DNA of 64,000 bases from NCBI GenBank assembly GCA_963782055.1, contig CAWAIF010000003.1:64001-128000 (forward strand), in the 5' to 3' direction. Origin of the DNA: an uncultured delta proteobacterium (lineage in GTDB: Bacteria; Myxococcota_A; Polyangia; Polyangiales; Polyangiaceae). A program made the translations under genes and the position numbers. The notes under the pieces were generated by a model. The model was given only the letters and a program-made list of their open reading frames with translations, was not told the DNA's origin and did no database searches. Shown piece by piece: positions 44,342-54,212 of this stretch (positions are counted from its first letter, which is position 1; every line of letters starts with the position of its first letter).

Positions 44342-44449
44342 ACGGCATGCTACGTCGCCGGGCGCGCGAGGCTTCCCGCGCGCGGGCAGCTTCAGGCCGG
44401 CGTGGCGTGGCGCGTCGGTTGGGGCGCGCGACGCCCGCCGCGTCGCGCT

Positions 44450-46986
44450 GCCCGGCACGCCGAGCGATCTGCTCTCCGAGCGCTACGCCGCGCGCTGGTA
44501 CACCCAGACCGCCACCTTCGACGGCGCCGATCGGCCCACCTCCCAGTCCACCGGCGCCCAGGTCGCCGAGCTCCTCGGCCAGAACCAGCAGAGCTTCGTC
44601 ACGACCGACTACACCAAGCGCGGCACGGTGAAACATGTCGGCTCCTCGTACGGCGATCTCGTCGCGCACGTCTACCACGACGCCGACGGTCTGCCGTACC
44701 AGGTCGAGTACGCCGACCTCGCGCACACCACGACCGACTTCGGCCACGACGATCGCCGCCGCCTTCGCACCGTGCAGACCTACCGCGGCCCACCCGCGGA
44801 GTGGACCAGCCCGCCCGTCAACTACAGCCCGCCTCCCCAGTACGGCCAGCAGACCCCCACCGACTTCCAGCTCATCCTCGAGGACGCCGAGTTCACCTAC
44901 GACGAGGTCGACAACCCCACCGAGATCCACGACTGGCGCACGCCGAGCAACTGGCCAGCGGGTGCCAAGCCCGTCACCCGCAAGGCCCAGTACGACGATC
45001 TCTATCGCCTGACGAAGATCGACTACCAGTACAGCGGCGGCGACGACACCTGGACCGACCCCTTCTACAACGAGGACCAGGGCCAGTACCCCGACTCCCG
45101 CCAGGCCAGGCCGAGCCCCCACGTCTCCTTCGACAAGCGCGTCCTGTCGCAGACCTACCAGTACGACTGGCTCGGCAACATCACCCAGTCCGGCGACGAC
45201 GCCCGCGGCTTCTACGACCGCTCCCTCGGCACCCAGACCCACGACGGCGCCAAGCCCTACCAGCTCCAGTCCGCGACGGGCGCGGTCTCGACCCGCGACG
45301 GCGCGCTCACCCTCGCCTACGACGACGCCGGCGACCTGACGAGCATGGCCCTGCTCCGCAACGGCCCGTGCATCGGCGGCGTGTGCTCCCAGCGCTTCGT
45401 CTACGACTGGGACGAGGTCGGCCGCCTCGCGAGGGCCCGCCGCTGGGACCAGCAGAATCCAGGCCTCGCGACCGACCCCGTCCCGCAAGCGACCCCCGAC
45501 GTCGACCTCCGGTACGCCTACGACGCGGGCGATCAGCGCGTCATCAAGACCGCCGTTGATTCCAACCAGACCGAGGTCCACACTCTCTACGTCTTCGCGT
45601 CGCTCGAGCTGCGGCGCACGTACCTTGAAAACGGAGACTACGCCGACACCCGGGACACCGAGGTCGCCTACCTCTTCGCGCACGGCGTCCGCCTCGCGCG
45701 CCTCCACTACGCCGAGGACAGCCTCCCCAGCCTGACCAGCGGGCACCTCCACGTCCTGCTGGAGCTCCCCGACCACCTCGGGTCGTCGGCGATCGTGATC
45801 GACAGGGAGACCAGCGAGCTGGTGGAGCGCAGCACGTACCAGGCGTACGGCGGCGCGGACAGCGACTACCGGCCGGGGAGGTGGGAGGGGTTCCGGGAGG
45901 ACTACCGGTTCACGGGGAAGGAGGAGGACGCGGAGGCTGGGATTGACTACTTCGGCATGAGGTATCTCAGTCCTGCGCTGGGGAGGTGGCTGAGCCCGGA
46001 CCCGCCCGGACCCGCTGGCGGTGCATGGGCTGGGGGCGGACCCGAACCTGTATGCGTACGTGCACAGTGGGGTGCTGAGGGCGACGGACCCACTGGGACT
46101 TAGGACGGATGACATCAGCCTTGGCGCACAGGCTGATTCTAAGGAGGCAGCCGCACGAGAAGCGGAAGGCGTTCAAGAGCCATATCAAACAAAGACGGCG
46201 GCTGGAGCGGTAGCTGAGGCGCTTCTGGACGTCAAGGCCGGCAACACCAGGGCGGCCAGCCACGACATCGCGCGGGGCGGCATTGCGATGCTGGGGCCTG
46301 CGCTGGGTACGATCCCACTGACCAAGTCGGCCCTGGCCGGCACTGCGGTGGGGCTCAAGCACCGGTCGCTTACTGCGGCAGAGGATGCAGCATGGCACGA
46401 GCAGCTCCGAGAACTCGCGCTGGGTGCACCGTCCGTCCCGCTGTTGTCCGCGAGCGCCGAGGCGATGGACAGCGCCAGCGTGGCCATTAGCGCCAAGGAT
46501 CCAAGGACTCGTGCGGGCGCAGTCACCGACGCGGTCGTTCTCTTCGTTGCCGCCATCACCCAGGTCGTCGCGTTTGCCGCTGGATCCAAGGCCGGGGCAG
46601 TGGAGGCGTCCGAGGCCGATCTCGAGGGGGCCGCTGCTCCACAGCTGCCACCCTTCAAAAAGGGCGGCAAGACCGCCGGCGTGCTACGGACTGCGAGCGG
46701 AGACACGTCGCTCATCAGTGGCTACAAAGGGCCTTCGGCCAGCATGCCACGAGGAACGCCGGGTATGAACTACAATATCAAGTCCCACGTGGAGGCACAC
46801 GCCGCCGCGTTGATGCGCGAGCAGGGGATTCAAGAGGGTATGTTGTTCATCAACAATGAGCCTTGCAAAGGGGTGACAGGGTGTGCAGCAATGCTGCCAA
46901 GGATGCTTCCAGAGGGCGCACGGCTCCGGGTCGTGGGCCCCAACGGCTACCATAAGACGTTTGTGGGCATACCGGACAAGCAATGA
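44450..46986 (+). pseudogene. 5'-truncated, frameshifted RHS toxin with DddA/SCP1.201-like deaminase C-terminus
   Basis: YD repeats, DHLGS, YRFTGKEED, YFG.RY, GRWLSPDP, NLYAYV and DPLGL motifs, then HVEAHAA..MR..GI.EG.LFINN.PC.....C. A 10-bp duplication at 45994-46015 shifts the frame. No credible start codon; left boundary approximate. Confidence 0.88.
45546..46090 (+). repeat. RHS core-end repeat, copy 1 (copy 2 at 47656-48191)
   Basis: About 540 bp near-identical, from AAGACCGCCGTTGATTCC to the DPxG codons; sequences diverge abruptly afterwards. Confidence 0.95.
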
Positions 46987-47369
46987 AGATTCTCGTGGGC
47001 TGGGACGATCAGGAGGCGCGCGTCGGCGGCGTGCAGGAACTTGACGACCTCCTTGACCGCCTGCAGCGTGAATTCGCGGCGGATTTGCCCCATTTGGTGA
47101 CTGTGGAACTCGAAGCTGGCGACAGTCTTGCCATTGGGCTTGGGCTGCCATGGAGCGTACTGAGCTTTGTGGCCGCAAGTAGAGAGCCGCCGTACTACGT
47201 AAGCGTAGGCGACGGGGGTTTCGGTCAGGACATCGGCTTCGTCTTCGGCGGTGAGTTGTCGGAGTATCCTTCACGCAATGTGATACCGTTGTCGGTGGCG
47301 CGCACAGCCCTTAGACAGTTTTGTCTTACCGGTTCGCTACCCGCAACAGTAAGCTGGGAGGACGCGTAG
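46983..47369 (+). CDS. Imm1/DddI-family immunity protein
   Basis: ATGA overlap with the deaminase stop; L.IGLG, PPYY.S.G, F..GG..SEYP..IP...AR.A..F..TG..P..V.WE pattern. Confidence 0.85.
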   Translation: MKILVGWDDQEARVGGVQELDDLLDRLQREFAADLPHLVTVELEAGDSLAIGLGLPWSVLSFVAASREPPYYVSVGDGGFGQDIGFVFGGELSEYPSRNVIPLSVARTALRQFCLTGSLPATVSWEDA

Positions 47370-47466
47370 TAGGCCGTTTCGAATCGAGGCGCCGTACGGA
47401 TCTCCCCGGATCTCCCTCCGGCACGTCGTGCTACGAGAAGCGTCACGAGCGGGGCCTTGCCGCGCG

Positions 47467-47673
47467 CGCCGCCCCGTCTCGGCGCGGCCACCCCATCCTC
47501 CCCGCATGGCGCGCGGAGCGCGACATCGAGGGGAGGAAGCTCGCGCGCAGGGCCCACGCGCAAGCGCCCGTGCGGGCCGCCGCCCGTGATCTCGCCCCCA
47601 TCGCCGGTCCGCGCGGGCGCGAGCATGGGCCCGAGCACGAGCTGGAGGGGCTCCAAAGACCGCCGTTGATTCC
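47467..47673 (+). repeat. About 205-bp repeat, copy A (copy B at 50966-51171)
   Basis: Near-identical stretch ending in the first 18 nt of the RHS core repeat. Confidence 0.9.
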
Positions 47674-49168
47674 ACCCAGACCGAGGTCCACACTCTCTAC
47701 GTCTTCGCGTCGCTCGAGCTGCGGCGCACGTACCTTGAAAACGGAGACTACGCCGACACCCGGGACACCGAGGTCGCCTACCTCTTCGCGCACGGAGTCC
47801 GCCTCGCGCACCTCCACTACGCCGAGGACAGCCTCCCCAGCCTGACCAGCGGGCACCTCCACGTCCTGCTGGAGCTCCCCGACCACCTCGGGTCGTCGGC
47901 AATCGTGATCGACAGGGAGACCAGCGAGCTGGTCGAGCGCAGCACGTACCAGGCGTACGGCGGCGCGGACAGCGACTACCGGCCAGGGAGGTGGGAGGCG
48001 TTCCGGGAGGACTACCGGTTCACGGGGAAGGAGGAGGACGCGGAGGCGGGGATTGATTACTTCGGGAAGAGGTATCTCAGTTCCGCGCTGGGGAGGTGGC
48101 TGAGCCCGGACCCGCTGGCGGTGCACGGGCTCGGGGGCGGACCCGAACCTGTACGCGTACGTGCACGGGGGAGTGCTGAGGGCGACCGACCCCGCCGGCT
48201 TGGACGACGGAGATCCCCTCGCGTCGAAGCAGGAGCCGACGACCGGCGCGATGGTAACGGACACCAGCGAGTCCACGTTCAGCGCGGGGAATCCGGATGT
48301 TCCTGCAAACCTGCAGAACGACGACGGGTTCAACAGGACGATAGAGTTCTCGACGGATTACTGCACCGCCCAGGGAACCCCTCGCCCTGCGATTCCTGGC
48401 AACGCGGCGCCGCCGACCAGGACACAGCCACACGACGCACCGGTCCGTCTAGCGACCGAACAAGAGCAGTTCGAGGCGGCGAAGATCGGGATGTGGAACG
48501 GCGTCGTCGATCTCGCGACCGCCTTGACCGCCGGAACGAATCCGAAGCTCGCCGAAATTGCCGACGGGATGATCGGGCCGCTTCGTCTGCCGCCGCCGAG
48601 ACTCACGGGCAATGCGCTCCACGACTACGAACTCCAGGGGAGCTACAAGGGCGGCGGCTATTTCACGCTGACGGTATCGATGGCCCTGCCCATGGCGGGC
48701 GAGGGCGAGGGCTTTGGCGTCCTCAGCTCGGAAGGCAGCGGACTGTTCGGGGTCGAGGAGGCCGCCGCTGGCGCTGGAACGGCGGCTGGCGGTGCCGCGA
48801 GTGGCACGGCCGCAGAGGGCGCAGAGGCCTCGCTGGTCGCGAGGGCCGAGCAGATCCATGGTGCGCTTGACACAACCGCACAGGGGATGCGAACGACGGC
48901 CGTGCTCGACACATCTGCGGGACGAGTGGTTGCGAGCGGCGGCAGGGACCTGACGCCTGGACAGCGGGCGTTGTTGCAGGCGGGCGAGATGTACAACGTC
49001 GCGCCCGGCGTCCATGCGGAGGTCACGGCGATCACGGGAGCAAGGCAGATCGGGGCGCAGTTGCGCGCCATTGGAACGACCCGCGACTTCTGCCCCTTCT
49101 GCATCGACTACATCGAGCAGAGCGGTGGGATGATTACGGGCCCGCGCACGGCCGTCTGGCCTCAGTAG
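47656..49168 (+). pseudogene. Orphan RHS module with a second deaminase-like toxin C-terminus
   Basis: RHS core end without a start codon; one extra base at 48132-48137; DPAGL motif; C-terminal GVHAEVTA...RDFCPFC Zn-deaminase motif. Confidence 0.85.
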
Positions 49169-49174
49169 GTGGAG

Positions 49175-49807
49175 ATGAACGTGGTGACCCTTCGCTTCGA
49201 TGAACCGGCGCTTCGACGGCAGCTTGATCGCCTCCCTCGGGAGCAGCGTGCCGCCTTCGCGGCGGCATGCGCGGAGCGGCTTTTCTCGGCCTACCTGCGC
49301 TTCTCGCACGAGGCTAGGACTGCCGACCCCAAGACGCTGCGGGCAGCGCTGGATGCTCTGTGGGACGACCTTACGGGCAAGCCGCTGTCGGAGCTGGAGC
49401 TTCGAGCGACAGTGAAGAAGTGCCGAGCGCTCGTGCCGAGCGAGAAAGACGAACCGTCCGACCAACAATTCTGCGCAGAGGACGCGGTTGTTGCGCTCGT
49501 CTATGCGCTTGAGGCGAGGATGAAGCACAGCAGCCAAGAAGCTGCGTGGTGTGCACGGCACGCCTACGAGGCGCTCGATCACTTCATCATGTTTGACGAC
49601 TCGGGCGTGGTTGTAACGGCGAACGAGCAGCGCTTGTTGGAACACCCTCTGGTGCAAGCCGAGCTGGCTAGGCAGAAGCGGGATCTAGACCAGCTGCAAG
49701 CCGCCGAGGGTCAAGACGTACGAGACGTAGCCGCTCGGCTTCGAGATCGCGCGAAGGAGGATGCGGGGATCGTCTTCGGGGGCAACGACAGCAGCGGGTC
49801 GAGCTGA
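49175..49807 (+). CDS. DUF416/YjaG-like helical protein, putative immunity
   Basis: L...QR.AFAAACAERL...Y..F...LR.ALD.LW and P....E...Q..DL motifs; directly follows the toxin stop. Alternative start GTG 49169. Confidence 0.7.
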   Translation: MNVVTLRFDEPALRRQLDRLPREQRAAFAAACAERLFSAYLRFSHEARTADPKTLRAALDALWDDLTGKPLSELELRATVKKCRALVPSEKDEPSDQQFCAEDAVVALVYALEARMKHSSQEAAWCARHAYEALDHFIMFDDSGVVVTANEQRLLEHPLVQAELARQKRDLDQLQAAEGQDVRDVAARLRDRAKEDAGIVFGGNDSSGSS

Positions 49808-49996
49808 TCGAGGTCGGCCCGCAGCACCCAGCACCCCCAGCACCACCATCGAGACCCATCGAGACTCGCTGAGACCACGCGGTGAGGTCGCCTCGCTGGG
49901 AGCATGGGAAATCGTAGCGCGATCGAGCGAGAACGAAGACAGGATTCATCCGTTTCCGACATCGCGTGGAGACACGGGAGGAGGAGGTTTCGCTCA

Positions 49997-50295
49997 ATGG
50001 GGTCACTTGTTTTGAAAGACGTGCTGATGCATGCTGATGATTACGCGCCGGAGCTTATCGTATACGTTGCCGTTGCCTCCGAGATTTCTGGCCCGTCCGA
50101 AGTGGAGCTCACGGAGTGTGTCGGACCTGGGACTAGCGTGCCTGGCGGCAAGCAGTATCTGCTGAGTACTGGGGATATTCGTGCGTGCTAGATACGTGAT
50201 CAAAGTGGCGCAATGGCCGCATCCCAACCGCTGAGGAGCGAGCTGAATCCGTAATGTTCTATTCGAGGTATGATGGATACTTACCCGTGGACTGA
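49997..50295 (+). pseudogene. Small orphan immunity-like gene with frameshift and internal stop
   Basis: Strong GGAGGAGG RBS. MGSLVLKDVL..YLLSTGDIR continues in another frame as VLDT*SKWRNGRIPTAEERAESVMFYSRYDGYLPVD*. Visibly lower GC. Confidence 0.55.
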
Positions 50296-50379
50296 TGCGG
50301 TCGGTTTGCGCAACGTTGGCAGGTACGCACGCGGCAAGGAGCTTCTGGAAACTTTTCACGCACGATTCGTCCCAGCCGC

Positions 50380-50945
50380 TCATTCCCGCAGGTTGCCACG
50401 GCGTGAACTCACGACGCCGGAATCGCTCACGCTGGGTGGTTCGACGTGAGGATTCGAATCGGCGAAGACGGCAGACGATGTTGGGTAGTCTTGCGATGGC
50501 ATCATGCAGCTCGAACGGGAGAAGGGCGGCGATGATCAACGGCCAGAGGATGCTCGTGAGCTTCCACGGGTCGCACGACATCGGTCGCGAGGTCGCCGAC
50601 GGCGGCGGGGCGCTCGGGGGGGGGGAGGCTCGGTCGGGAGCGAGCATCGCGCCCAGAAGCACCTTCGCGTAGGGCCAGGCGAGGGTCGTGTCGTCGCGCC
50701 AGTTGGGCAAGAGGTCGAAGCCGCAGAGGGACTTCCACCGCTTGAACTGAAGCTCGACCTGCCAGCGGAGCCGATAGCCTTGTAGGCATCGGTTGGCATC
50801 GAGTCGCGAGCGAGCGGCCGTCGTGAAGAGCAGGACGTACTTCGCCGCCTCGAAGACGCGCGGCGAGAGGTTGGCGCCCTTCTCGCGACGCAATCTCTCG
50901 CGGGCGCGCTCGACGGCATCGGCGGGGAGCTGGTGGTGGCGAGGG
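50380..50945 (-). mobile_element. IS4-family transposase C-terminal remnant
   Basis: YVLLFTT...YRLRWQVELQFKRWKSL, the Y-2-R-3-E-6-K signature; N-terminus missing; boundaries approximate. Confidence 0.75.
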
Positions 50946-50965
50946 GGGTCACCCACGTCGGTGAT

Positions 50966-51171
50966 CGCCGCCCCGTCTCCGCGTAGCACCCCATCCTCCC
51001 CGTATGGCGCGCGGAGCGCGACATCGTGGGGAGGAAGCTCGCGCGCAGGGCCCACGCGCAAGCGCCCGTGCGGGCCGCAGCCCGTGATCTCGCCCCCGTC
51101 GCCGGCCCGCGCGGGCGCGAGCATGGGCCCGAGCACGAGCTGGAGGGGCTCCAAAGACCGCCGTTGATTCC
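50966..51171 (+). repeat. About 205-bp repeat, copy B
   Basis: Matches 47467-47673; stops after ..GTTGATTCC. Confidence 0.9.
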
Positions 51172-51449
51172 GACAAGAGTTCGACGAGGTCTTGTGGGAG
51201 GGGGTGGTGAGGCCAGCGAGCCTTCCACTCCGCGAGTCCCGCCGCGGAGATGCCCGAGCCAAGGACGTGCCCCGTCCGACGAACGCGCCGCTCGACCGTG
51301 TGTCGCGGGTCCGCCACGAGGTCGGTCAGCCGCATTCCGCCGCGCTGGTGAAGGTCGGCGACGAGCTCAGGGGTCGCGACGCGCACGTCGTCCTCGCCGG
51401 TGCGGCCCGGCTCCGCGGCCACCTTCTGCAGGAGCTCGTCGAGGGTCAT
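51172..51449 (-). pseudogene. 3'-truncated gene, possibly SMI1/KNR4-like immunity
   Basis: ATG at 51449; ends GISAAGLAEWKARWPHHPLPQDLVELLS, resembling the start of a SUKH domain, and is cut at repeat copy B. Confidence 0.4.
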
Positions 51450-51599
51450 CTCGTCAGCCTACGAGCAAACCCGGGCTGAGGCTGCGCCGGCACGTGACGT
51501 GGGAACCCCGCGCCACGGTGACCGAGGGCCAGACAGACCCGCAGAGAGGGCCGGCGGTAAAGCTCGGCGCGCCGGCGGACTTCATCCGGCGGCTACCCG

Positions 51600-51847
51600 C
51601 GCCCCTGCAGCTCGCCAAGCTCACCATCGACGGCGTCACCAAGATGGCGTTCGGCGGCAGCATTCACCAGCTCGGGGCGCGCACGGGCCAGATGTCGTGC
51701 TCGGAGCCCAACCTGATGGGACTGCGGCGCGCGAAAGAGGTCCGAGTCCGCATCGTGGCGCCGCCGGGCATGAAGCTCATCGTCGCCGACTACGCCAACA
51801 TCGAGATGCGCGTCCTCGCCGACCAGACCGGAGACGAGAAGCTCGAC
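51600..51847 (+). pseudogene. Family A DNA polymerase fragment
   Basis: IHQLGARTGQMSCSEPNL and LIVADYANIEMRVLA..TGD..L (PolA motif A). Confidence 0.75.
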
Positions 51848-52374
51848 CACTTCTTCTTTCCGGTCTTGAGTTCCCAGACGACGGGGTGGTGTTGTATTTC
51901 TACAACCGCGTCCATCGCGCCGACGAGCGGCAGCGGATGTATCTCCCCCGTGACGGGGTGTGCGAGCTCGAGGCTGAAAGGTACTTCCACCCCGTGCACC
52001 TTCTCCGGGAGCGGGACGCGGGCGAGAAATACATCCAGCATCGAGAGGGCGACGTCGACGACCGTGCCGGCGTCTTGTTCTTCTTCCTCGAACAGGACGG
52101 GCACGCCGTCACCCTCGATGCCGCGGACGATGCCGTCGCGCAGGTGGGCGCGCAGCTCGTCGACAGGCACGGGAGACCCGGGACGCGACCGGAGCAGGTG
52201 CTCGCCGATGGTGGCGTGCCACGCCGTGCCGAACACCAGGGCGAGCGGCCGGAACGCGGGCGTGGCCCGCTGGATGTACTGGTAGAAGTACTTCCGCGGG
52301 CACTGCAGGTAGCACTTCACCTGGGAGACGGACGTGTGCGGCCGAGCGCGCAGCTCGGCGAGCGATGAATCCAT
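51846..52374 (-). pseudogene. PD-(D/E)XK (RecB-like) nuclease, 3'-truncated
   Basis: SVSQVKCYLQCPRKY, FGTAWH, VEVPF, GAMDAV and WELKT motifs; abuts the PolA fragment. Confidence 0.8.
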
Positions 52375-52451
52375 GAGGGGACCTCGTTCGTGGAGCGCGC
52401 GGCCTGGGCCGCAGCGCGGGGTTGAATGGATGAAGCGCGAAGCGCAGTCAC

Positions 52452-52480
52452 TTGACAGACTATGCCATCAGGCACATATT
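52452..52480 (+). promoter_or_regulatory. Sigma70 promoter with operator for the TA operon
   Basis: TTGACA-N17-CATATT, with the imperfect palindrome TATGCC-ATCA-GGCACA in the spacer. Confidence 0.7.
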
Positions 52481-52534
52481 GTGCGCCGAGGCGACGGTGC
52501 CGAAGCAGGAGCGCTTGGATTGGAGAGGTAGGCG

Positions 52535-52907
52535 ATGGGCGTAGAGGTGGTCGTCACGGACGAGTTTGCGGCCTGGTACGAGGGCCTCTCCGAGTCGGAA
52601 CAGGACCGTGTGGCCTTCACGATTGGGCTGCTCGAGGAGCGCGGCGTGACGTTGCCGCACCCCTACTCCAGCTCCATCAAGGGCGCGTCGTTCGCCCTTC
52701 GAGAGCTGCGCACGCAGGCGGAAGGTGATCCTCTGCGAACCCCTGCGAACCCTGTACGCCTTCGACCCGTCGAGGCACGCCGTCCTGCTCATCGGCGGCG
52801 ACAAGACCGGAGATGACCGCTTCTACGCGAGGATGATCCCCCTCGCCGAACGGCTCTGGACCGAATACCTGGAGGAGACCGACCAGAACAAGCCCAAGAA
52901 GAAGTGA
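52535..52907 (+). pseudogene. RelE/HigB (Gp49-like) toxin, frameshifted
   Basis: TDEF..WY..L, LL.E.G..L..P.S..IKG, LRELR; removing the 10-bp duplication at 52733-52752 restores DPLRTLYAFDP.R.AVLLIGGDKTG. Confidence 0.88.
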
Positions 52908-52951
52908 CCCATGACCCGCCGAGACGGCGGACGTATTTCAGGAGCAGCATT

Positions 52952-53254
52952 ATGGCCACGCACAAGTGGAGCGAGTTGAAGGGCAAGATGGCGCCCGCGC
53001 GCAGGGCGCGGGTGGACGCGGCTGTCCGCCGAGAGCTTCTCACGATGGAGCTGCGCGAGCTGCGCGAGGAGGCCGGCAAGACCCAGGCGGAAGTCGGCGA
53101 GATCGCCGAGATGACGCAGGCCGAGCTGTCGAAGTTCGAGCGCCGGGAAGACCACCTCATCTCGACGCTACGACGCTACGTGACGGCCCTCGGTGGAGAG
53201 CTCGAGGTCGTCGCAGTGTTCGACAACAAGCGCATCGCGCTGAAGGGCGTCTGA
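52952..53254 (+). CDS. XRE/HTH antitoxin (HigA-like)
   Basis: LRELRE..GKTQ.EV......Q..LSK.ER.ED...STLRRYV.ALGGEL pattern; downstream of the toxin. Confidence 0.88.
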   Translation: MATHKWSELKGKMAPARRARVDAAVRRELLTMELRELREEAGKTQAEVGEIAEMTQAELSKFERREDHLISTLRRYVTALGGELEVVAVFDNKRIALKGV

Positions 53255-53529
53255 AACACATCAAACGGCCCTCTTGCGTAGACTCGGCGCCGGAGACCGC
53301 CGGCTGGAGCCACGGCGGAGGCGTCCACCGGAGACCCCCGCCGCCCTCCGCCGCTCTCTTCTACGACCGCGTCCCGTTCGCGCCCGACCACTCGTCGAGC
53401 AAGGCGCTCGCCTCCCGCCGGGTCAGGTTCTGCGGCGCGTCCTTGCCCGTCCGTTCGATGAGCGCCGCGCCCAGCGCCGCCGTAGAGCTCCGACCCACCA
53501 CCAACGCCCAGGCCGCCCGGAGGCGCACG

Positions 53530-53742
53530 ATGAGCGCCGCCCGCTGGGTCAGCGTGGCCGTCGCCGCCGAGCTCCTGGGACTGCCGCCGAGGAGCCTCCG
53601 CCGGACGCTCGAGCGTGCCTCCGGGCGCGTGGCGGATGGCGGTGTGGAAGCTCGCGTCGATGGCGTGCGCGGCCGCAAGTTTGGGCACCTGTGGCGCGTC
53701 CAGTTCAGCGAGAGCTGGCTCTCGACCAGGCCGCCGTCATGA
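53530..53742 (+). CDS. Small HTH, excisionase-like protein
   Basis: WVSV..AAELLGL....LRR.LER and RKFG..WRV; lies at the island edge beside the tRNA. Confidence 0.5.
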   Translation: MSAARWVSVAVAAELLGLPPRSLRRTLERASGRVADGGVEARVDGVRGRKFGHLWRVQFSESWLSTRPPS

Positions 53743-53869
53743 AGCTGAACGCCCTGCCGCGTGCTACCTTCCGGGTCTCTCCCAGGTGCTCGGGGATGCC
53801 GGAAAGGACACCGGCATGACCGTTCACAAGTACGTGAGGCGTGGGAATCTGTAATATGTACAGGTACTT

Positions 53870-53954
53870 GGAGGAGTGGCCGAGTGGTCTAAGGCAGCGG
53901 TTTTGAAAACCGCCGTACCGCAAGGTACCGGGAGTTCGAATCTCTCCTCCTCCG
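53870..53954 (+). tRNA. tRNA-Ser (anticodon TGA), CCA not fully encoded
   Basis: Acceptor stem GGAGGAG/CTCCTCC, anticodon arm GCGGT-TTTGAAA-ACCGC, long variable arm GTAC-CGCAAG-GTAC, T loop TTCGAAT, discriminator G followed by CCC. Confidence 0.95.
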
Positions 53955-54212
53955 CCCTTCCTTTCCGACGGGTGCGAAAGCTCCACGGCGACAAGTTGCG
54001 CCATGACCGCACATATTGCCGTCCGGAAGCAGCTCCTGTAGCTCGGCTCAGCCCCGGCCTTGCCCATCTCTCGCCCTGCCCGGCCTCCTTCGCGGGGCTC
54101 CTTTGCGCTGTGGGTGACCTTCGGGGCCTTCTCCCGCACCGGGCGCGCGAAGTGCGTCCGCGTCTCCGGGGAGCGACGCCGCGGTTGGCACCCACATTGC
54201 TCTGCGGTGGTC

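Follow-up and report, generated by a model that had tools for sequence, protein, structure and literature searches.

Orphan RHS toxin cassettes in Polyangiaceae often begin where a dispersed, DUF559-linked hairpin element has its fixed end

In a 64,000-nucleotide stretch of DNA from an uncultured member of the Polyangiaceae (GCA_963782055.1, contig CAWAIF010000003.1; this whole stretch is called the window, and its genome, of 7.58 Mb in 3 contigs with 71.6% GC and 97% completeness, G000), we studied a row of RHS toxin-immunity cassettes. The row consists of RHS core 1, a first C-terminal toxin tip (CT1), an Imm1 immunity gene, a repeat, a 547-bp core 2, a second tip (CT2), a DUF416 gene, relic DNA, a second copy of the repeat and an 18-bp core stub. 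The repeat, which a sequence-only reading had taken for a cassette leader, is indeed repeated, but it is not part of the cassettes: it is not derived from RHS, and represents the terminal block of a mobile-looking dispersed element found throughout the genome (54 matches in G000 with a hidden Markov model of the leader, 63 with a covariance model). Comparison of sequences suggests, with a probability of about 0.6, that this hairpin element supplies the cassette edges with its fixed end, and likely created them by joining that end into the RHS core. Orphan RHS rows and deaminase tips are described in sections of earlier publications (PMC2935791, PMC3482391, PMC7901873). Orphan toxin cassettes are very common, yet the standard model left open how the first partial-core copy arises and why cores start at arbitrary positions. 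In many genomes the edges described here bear the mark of one and the same element, precise to the nucleotide, which provides candidate enzymes and a junction that can be traced by polymerase chain reaction.

Element-RHS junctions at orphan edges

In the window, the right end of element copy A (47467..47655, + strand, 145 bits with model R1) abuts core 2 (47656..48192, +), an orphan that repeats the final 540 bp of core 1 and begins exactly at the element end. Copy B (50966..51153, +, 157 bits with model R1) has the same junction, followed by the 18-bp stub of a third core copy (51154..51171, +) of which the cassette is lost, in agreement with the third-cassette stub noted from the sequence alone. 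The two core repeats (45546-46091 and 47656-48192) share 94.5% identity over 547 columns, and the element repeats (47467-47673 and 50966-51171, each including 18 bp of core at the end) share 95.7% over 207 columns. By our reasoning, repeats that recombine with each other can only restore an edge that is already there, and new edges need a new joint; the single junction shared by copies A and B fits such a re-creation.

Seven copies of the element in G000 have a right flank which is a 92-98% identical copy of the interior or 5' end of a gene located elsewhere in the genome, and the copied sequence begins no more than a few bases from where the element stops. These flanks derive from the window core, from two positions in a second RHS family and from an uvrA-like gene, and two of these junctions recur, at the window stub and at a copy split by an insertion sequence (IS). 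There are three distinct RHS junctions in G000, whereas RHS makes up 0.24% of the genome and would be expected to give approximately 0.1 (Poisson P ~3e-4, uncorrected for selection).

We expanded this comparison to loci in 13 genomes, picked by RHS query and curated by hand, where the element was present at 26/35 orphan edges and in 10/13 genomes (G000 5/7, G076 2/2, G138 1/1, G163 2/2, G158 7/9, G108 4/5, G020 2/2, G010 1/1, G122 1/1 and G102 1/1); edges at contig ends were dropped from these counts, and some automatically found junctions were counted only if confirmed by eye or by further comparison. A post-hoc automatic motif rule was passed at 17/33 edges versus 0.7% of random positions. 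As a control that made no use of these edges, a model built from the G000 copies alone was run over 400 kb and gave 26 matches outside the window at E≤1, with orphan edges accounting for 13. The reverse search, starting from the DUF559 gene linked to the element (see below), gave 22 loci with approximately 1.5 kb of readable sequence among the 30 best, and 6/22 face RHS DNA. In four of these six the RHS sequence begins 360-630 nt from DUF559, as the geometry predicts, with the others at approximately 500 nt (with a weak score) and at 1.1 kb.

The positions in RHS coding DNA to which the hairpin end is fused are many. The fixed end meets different core positions within one genome (two each in G053, G108, G163 and G138, and six in G158), with one junction position each in G076, G020, G010, G102 and G122, which adds up to approximately 20 distinct junctions in at least four RHS classes and several genera. 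In the junctions inspected, the core is always on the hairpin side and in one orientation, and the missing 5' part of the core was not seen on the far side. Genes other than RHS are likewise found as tandem copies with the element between them, in the same geometry.

These last observations bear on the explanation that the element only marks the edges, in which ordinary recombination and deletion would make the orphans, the element would insert later into silent cores, and deletions would trim the 5' side. In favour of this, 39/54 G000 copies behave as ordinary extragenic repeats, with a convergent gene whose stop codon is at most 50 nt from the end of the copy, compared with 8% of random intergenic places (distances based on rough in-house gene calls), and some orphan edges do not have the element. 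In addition, silent cassettes tolerate insertions, as these rows contain an IS, ISCR end modules and relics of IS4. Against it are the constant side and orientation of the core in the inspected junctions, the 5' core part being unseen on their far side, and the same geometry at tandem non-RHS gene copies, and we consider this explanation unlikely.

Tandem copies separated by the element were observed at several loci. At G000 C3:2259199-2267800 (- strand), two full DUF559 elements are each fused to a copy of the 5' part of an uvrA-like gene, the source of which is at C3:2224608, and DUF559 elements part tandem paralogues in L120 (G136), L136 (G093) and L119 (G127), involving PEGA-domain genes, PD-(D/E)XK_2 (Rpn-like) genes and a 2.9-kb duplication.

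Structure and distribution of the hairpin element

The element was matched in 7/7 genomes of the genus using the covariance model. Its terminal block is approximately 160 nt and consists of nested helices, in which 15/46 pairs change on both sides. None of 500 shuffles reached 15 such pairs and slid controls gave 2-7 pairs, a comparison that is not a probability as the copies are related. Both strands of the hairpin block fold well (z -4.4 and -3.0), and a search of Rfam gave two chance matches only (E 1.5 and 3.9). The element end is G-rich and followed by 5-10 variable bases, with no strict target motif emerging. The hairpin end is always kept, whereas the left extent is graded, with 0-34 nt in 37/54 copies, 66-403 nt in 9/54 and 584-676 nt in 8/54, the latter reaching into DUF559.

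A fixed end, a short variable tail and a gradient of left truncations are also what would be expected of an RNA route, in which a host enzyme, of a retron or a group II intron, would carry out target-primed reverse transcription. In this case the RNA 3' end would correspond to the hairpin end, the 5-10-nt tail would be untemplated, the graded left ends 5' truncations, and the RHS junctions insertions that lost target DNA. Reverse transcriptase genes are present in G000, but none is linked to the full copies, a far end of the TGT type, as is typical of DNA transposons, survives in some of the shortened copies, and the route alone does not explain why the DNA to the right of a junction duplicates upstream DNA. 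This makes it a very unlikely source of the junctions.

Other identities for the repeat were also considered. A role as RHS-specific promoter or recombination site was ruled out by its genome-wide copies, and it is not the 100-bp end module of ISCR, which differs in sequence and borders other RHS fragments. One copy of the hairpin element cuts a reverse transcriptase open reading frame (ORF) within its first reverse transcriptase motifs (G000 C3:1154362-1155234, -; Pfam RVT_1 only 13.7 bits). We take this ORF to be retron-like, and a short upstream inverted repeat could represent the retron RNA ends.

DUF559 and transposase genes linked to the element

Full copies run leftwards from the hairpins through a leader of approximately 330 nt into a divergent 120-aa DUF559 gene, and the multi-copy unit thus comprises hairpins, leader and DUF559, sometimes followed by an IS481-like transposase. 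The DUF559 protein matches PF04480 with 101.6 bits and has a solved relative (3HRL), and DUF559 matches were found in 86/151 genomes of the family, with at most 27 per genome. An IS481-like transposase with helix-turn-helix and rve domains is located directly behind DUF559 in 5/87 matches (65 loci, 3 genomes), with the loci partly overlapping, the overlaps kept and the flanks often short. Transposase fragments and the TGT-type far end persist in shortened copies, including those at the heads of the second RHS row in G000. The TGT-type far end is found in several copies, while the hairpin end is only loosely similar to it or not at all.

In full copies (e.g. C3:4287212-4287420) the leader contains an inverted copy of the first 23 nt or so of the DUF559 coding sequence, which as judged from its sequence would hide the start codon in the mRNA. 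The same IS481-like transposase is also found at G000 C3:917500-918900 (-), without DUF559, behind a small gene and beside a CRISPR-like repeat array; we assume the product of the small gene to be a four-helix bundle. A RAYT gene was not found between divergent element pairs, where the gaps hold DUF559, a reverse transcriptase fragment or host genes (no genome-wide RAYT search was made). A literature search on DUF559 with repeats, Rhs or mobile elements, which covered titles and abstract openings and had subscription papers outside its scope, gave nothing pointing to element-defined edges.

Possible origin of the cassette edges

The likely creation of the edges by the element can be envisaged as follows. 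With an element downstream of an immunity gene, the end of the element would be moved to some position within the core upstream, and this joining would yield either a tandem duplication or a circle consisting of core fragment, toxin, immunity gene and element. Following the displacement model, the circle would recombine into a homologous core and push the resident tip downstream, behind an element-core junction. Later circles, cut out via core-repeat recombination, would inherit the same junction, as may have happened with copies A and B, after which the carrier gene would have been deleted and the tips broken.

The catalyst of such a reaction could tentatively be the DUF559 nuclease, while an IS481-like transposase acting in trans, as the linked gene might allow, is a somewhat more doubtful candidate; a host pathway may also make the joint. 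It is likewise conceivable, though at less than even odds, that the DUF559 nuclease and its structured end together constitute a mobile element that is widespread in myxobacteria and acts as a one-ended duplicator, which would cut at the hairpin end and graft this end onto upstream DNA, thereby giving rise to circles and duplications that seed orphan cassettes of several RHS classes. If true, the rhs displacement model would gain the first step that it lacks, and DUF559, a common domain whose function is unknown, would acquire its first role in a mobile element.

The window row resembles the Rhs orphan ('dissociated tip') arrays of Jackson et al. 2009 (PMC2935791), which in the sections considered here are described as a partial core with an unrelated tip and an immunity gene, repeated downstream, with variable core lengths and decay by frameshifts. 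It differs from these arrays in the absence of an intact head gene and in having edges which coincide with a specific dispersed element. The model in those sections uses homologous recombination only, with no integrase known to co-occur, and derives circles from recombination between existing repeats, with the origin of the first circle left open (PMC2935791). As a whole the element is reminiscent of the REP/REPIN-REPtron system, in the part of its description used here (PMC3733652), as both have multi-copy palindromic extragenic repeats near stop codons, a minority of which flank a small nuclease gene. However, the partner is a PD-(D/E)XK protein (DUF559) and not a HUH RAYT, the nested helices of approximately 160 nt are on one side of the gene only, and the element forms duplication junctions. 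For IS30-type elements it is established, according to the section of the source used (PMC9333248), that copy-out transposition proceeds by attack of one end on the molecule that carries it, with replication then producing a circle, and the proposal also resembles the wider IS481/IS3/IS30-type reaction in that flanking DNA can be carried. The element differs from these in having a transposase behind only the 5/87 DUF559 matches mentioned above, and in its ends. In the one-ended transposition of IS91/ISCR, the end attacks a target and flanking DNA can also be carried, but no HUH transposase is linked to the element described here. A possible analogue from Escherichia coli is the H-repeat, which adjoins rhs genes.

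Several points weigh against creation of the edges by the element. The evidence is all comparative, and no circle, activity or empty-versus-filled site was seen. The element mostly behaves like an ordinary extragenic repeat near convergent stop codons (39/54), its ends are not clear inverted repeats, and the window copies A and B carry neither DUF559 nor transposase. Edges without the element were found in G067 (0/1 with element), G132 (0/2) and G004 (0/1), as well as for 2/9 edges in G158 and 1/5 in G108, and overall the edge of core 1 itself and eight other edges have none. Edge positions were assigned manually and were already known when the motif rule was drawn up, model scores in other genera were weak (14-24 bits), and 4/6 matches in the DUF559-first search used a reference from the same genome. 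Finally, the enrichment at RHS genes may be due not to targeting but to spare immunity genes being retained.

The window locus is a decayed orphan row

All parts of the row recognised from sequence alone (RHS core with CT1 and Imm1, repeat, core end of approximately 540 bp, CT2 and DUF416-like gene) are present, with support from Pfam and alignments. The row is a decayed orphan RHS toxin-immunity locus, in which the RHS core ends in DPxG before an unrelated tip, without a parent gene and with both deaminase tips out of frame. Core 1 (44430..46091, +; homology from approximately 44430, in the frame of 44442) is the 5'-truncated last quarter of a SpvB/FG-GAP/TcdB_midN-RHS gene, without start and secretion part. 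Intact homologues in related genomes are 2,300-2,900 aa, with SpvB, FG-GAP, TcdB_midN and RHS parts, often HINT, and varied tips (pre-core regions of 2,194-2,277 aa). Core 1 is 70-71% identical to residues ~1660-2205 of these, with the start of homology at residue ~1690-1750 of the pre-core regions, and lacks about 75% of the gene. When three intact homologues were compared with G000 using tblastn, nothing 5' of residue ~1660 was found anywhere for the window RHS family; the search for a full-length parent RHS was thus negative in G000 and positive in relatives.

The frame of CT1 is lost through a 10-nt tandem duplication (break 1, 45994..46013, +), while that of CT2 is lost through one extra base near 48132, which is seen in the assembly alone as independent reads do not cover it. 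An assembly error at break 1 is disfavoured by a short-read contig (run X1, possibly the source sample; depth 3.7) which covers 45524-46085 including break 1, with one differing letter and no gaps. The site in core 1 that corresponds to break 2 is 3' of break 1, and hence any single crossover between the cores retains at least one break. Internal starts with a ribosome-binding motif were limited to two weak candidates late in CT1 and none in CT2, whereas both immunity genes (Imm1 and DUF416) are intact.

These breaks bear on the proposal, made from the sequence alone, of a live deaminase cassette system in which recombination between the core repeats swaps CT2 onto the main RHS. Such a system would fit with the 94.5% core repeats, the two toxin-immunity pairs and the intact homologues in relatives, one of which has a DddA-like tip. 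However, there is no parent gene in the 97%-complete G000, both tips are out of frame (for break 1 also in the short-read contig) and single crossovers keep a break, and the rows scanned in relatives gave no sign of a preference for deaminase tips. A live swap is therefore highly improbable, and the main use of the row today would be to protect its owner from rival deaminases of the SCP1.201 and CT2 types. A specialisation in deaminases, as also suggested earlier, finds no support beyond two tips, with the scanned tips of relatives being of other or unknown kinds. The pairing of two deaminases is not the chief novelty either: deaminases are given as the second most common class of nucleic-acid-acting toxins in polymorphic toxin systems in part of a published survey (PMC3482391), and the deaminase row itself is ordinary and broken, with the novelty being in the 'leader'.

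The second RHS family of G000 is likewise truncated and frameshifted. Its row, at C3:5244000-5257000 (L001, L149), contains an unrelated TcdB_mid-type RHS which is 5'-truncated and frameshifted, and two orphan cassettes, each headed by a mini-element with TGT end, transposase 3' tail and hairpin end. More pieces of this family are located at C3:4420849, C3:4437816 (split by an IS) and C3:4463007. In G158, two short orphan cores (L088:19000 and L089:987) begin at another shared sequence, not the hairpin element. G000 also encodes an intact 2,680-aa teneurin-like YD protein (C2:3815-11854, -), which is unrelated to the window core.

Toxin tips and immunity genes

Both tips contain deaminase motifs and are otherwise unrelated, as had been read from the sequence: CT1 belongs to PF14428, and CT2 to a separate family with a deaminase fold in its model. 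CT1 (46090..46986, +) matches PF14428 with 80.2 bits (cut-off 25) and the DddA chains in a phmmer search (E 8e-12 to 6e-10), and contains HVE at 46786 and zinc-ligand cysteines (PC-x5-C from 46861). It is followed by an intact Imm1 gene (46983..47369, +; PF14430, 61.5 bits), the start of which overlaps the CT1 stop codon and for which no solved relative was found by sequence. This combination of PF14428 and PF14430, an HxE motif and zinc-ligand cysteines is shared with the SCP1.201 deaminases (DddA, Sdd) with Imm1/DddI-type immunity, and judged by sequence CT1 is classed with the SCP1.201/DddA-like deaminases with an Imm1 neighbour, although it is unlike DddA in its cysteine spacing and in being out of frame with its carrier. 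Most of the SCP1.201 proteins assayed act on single-stranded DNA, according to part of a preprint (bioRxiv 2023.05.21.541555), and so activity on double-stranded DNA is not implied for CT1. Inhibition of SCP1.201 proteins by small downstream genes is described in part of another report (PMC13034033).

CT2 (48193..49168, +) has a deaminase-fold domain of approximately 118 aa, with HAE at 49013 and CPFC at 49091. In Pfam it gave weak deaminase matches only (16.7 bits, below the cut-off), while its family has 749 cluster representatives at E≤0.001, several of which are C-terminal tips of long RHS proteins. In an alignment of 47 sequences the H and E are nearly invariant and both cysteines are invariant. 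The model of the domain (pLDDT 89.7) has a C-terminal beta-hairpin after the last helix. Foldseek with this model gave no match at E≤0.001, with cytidine deaminases in the top rows, whereas the best match with VIA-align was blasticidin-S deaminase (Z 9.4, root-mean-square deviation 3.2, 94 aligned), followed by lower scores with SsdA (Z 7.5) and DddA (Z 4.5), and the top structural matches were nearly all deaminases. With HxE and CxxC present, CT2 is predicted from this model to be a deaminase-fold family distinct from CT1. CT2 resembles the Tox-Deaminase sce3516-like clade, compared by published description and not by the prototype sequence. In the portion of that description used (PMC3482391), the clade shares with CT2 the HAE motif, the C-terminal beta-hairpin, and RHS and TcdB/TcaC-type carriers, and has a myxobacterial prototype, whereas its immunity protein is Imm-SUKH, in contrast to the DUF416 found after CT2 relatives.

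The DUF416 gene following CT2 (49169..49807, +) is intact and matches PF04222 with 85.5 bits. A DUF416 gene was found after CT2 homologues in 7/10 distinct loci (7/8 in a first set, the eighth being cut by an IS, and 0/2 in further distinct loci; one duplicate locus and three weak matches were left out). On the basis of this adjacency DUF416 is likely the cognate immunity protein of CT2, and the family thus gains an assignment as a likely, still putative, immunity family for deaminase toxins. Among titles and abstract openings on DUF416 as immunity, with subscription papers outside the search, nothing pointed to such a system.

Remaining features of the region

Downstream of DUF416 there are low-GC pieces of relic ORFs (49904..50440, +; GC 0.57-0.60), previously read as an orphan immunity relic, an identity that was not confirmed: they have no Pfam match and no usable match in the Atlas, and the ORF at 49997-50188 is likewise without a family or Atlas match. 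They are followed by an IS4-type transposase fragment (50714..50902, -; PF01609, 22.1 bits, just below the cut-off). A scan of the locus for promoters and terminators stayed at chance level, and synteny of the left flank of the island with genus relatives gave distant paralogues only. On the other side, window positions 51400-53960 hold an island remnant which ends at a tRNA-Ser(TGA) gene (53869-53957), and contains a DNA polymerase A fragment, a PD-(D/E)XK_1 nuclease, an XRE antitoxin, and a Gp49/RelE-like toxin, the gene of which is disrupted near 52725 where a short tandem duplication is present.

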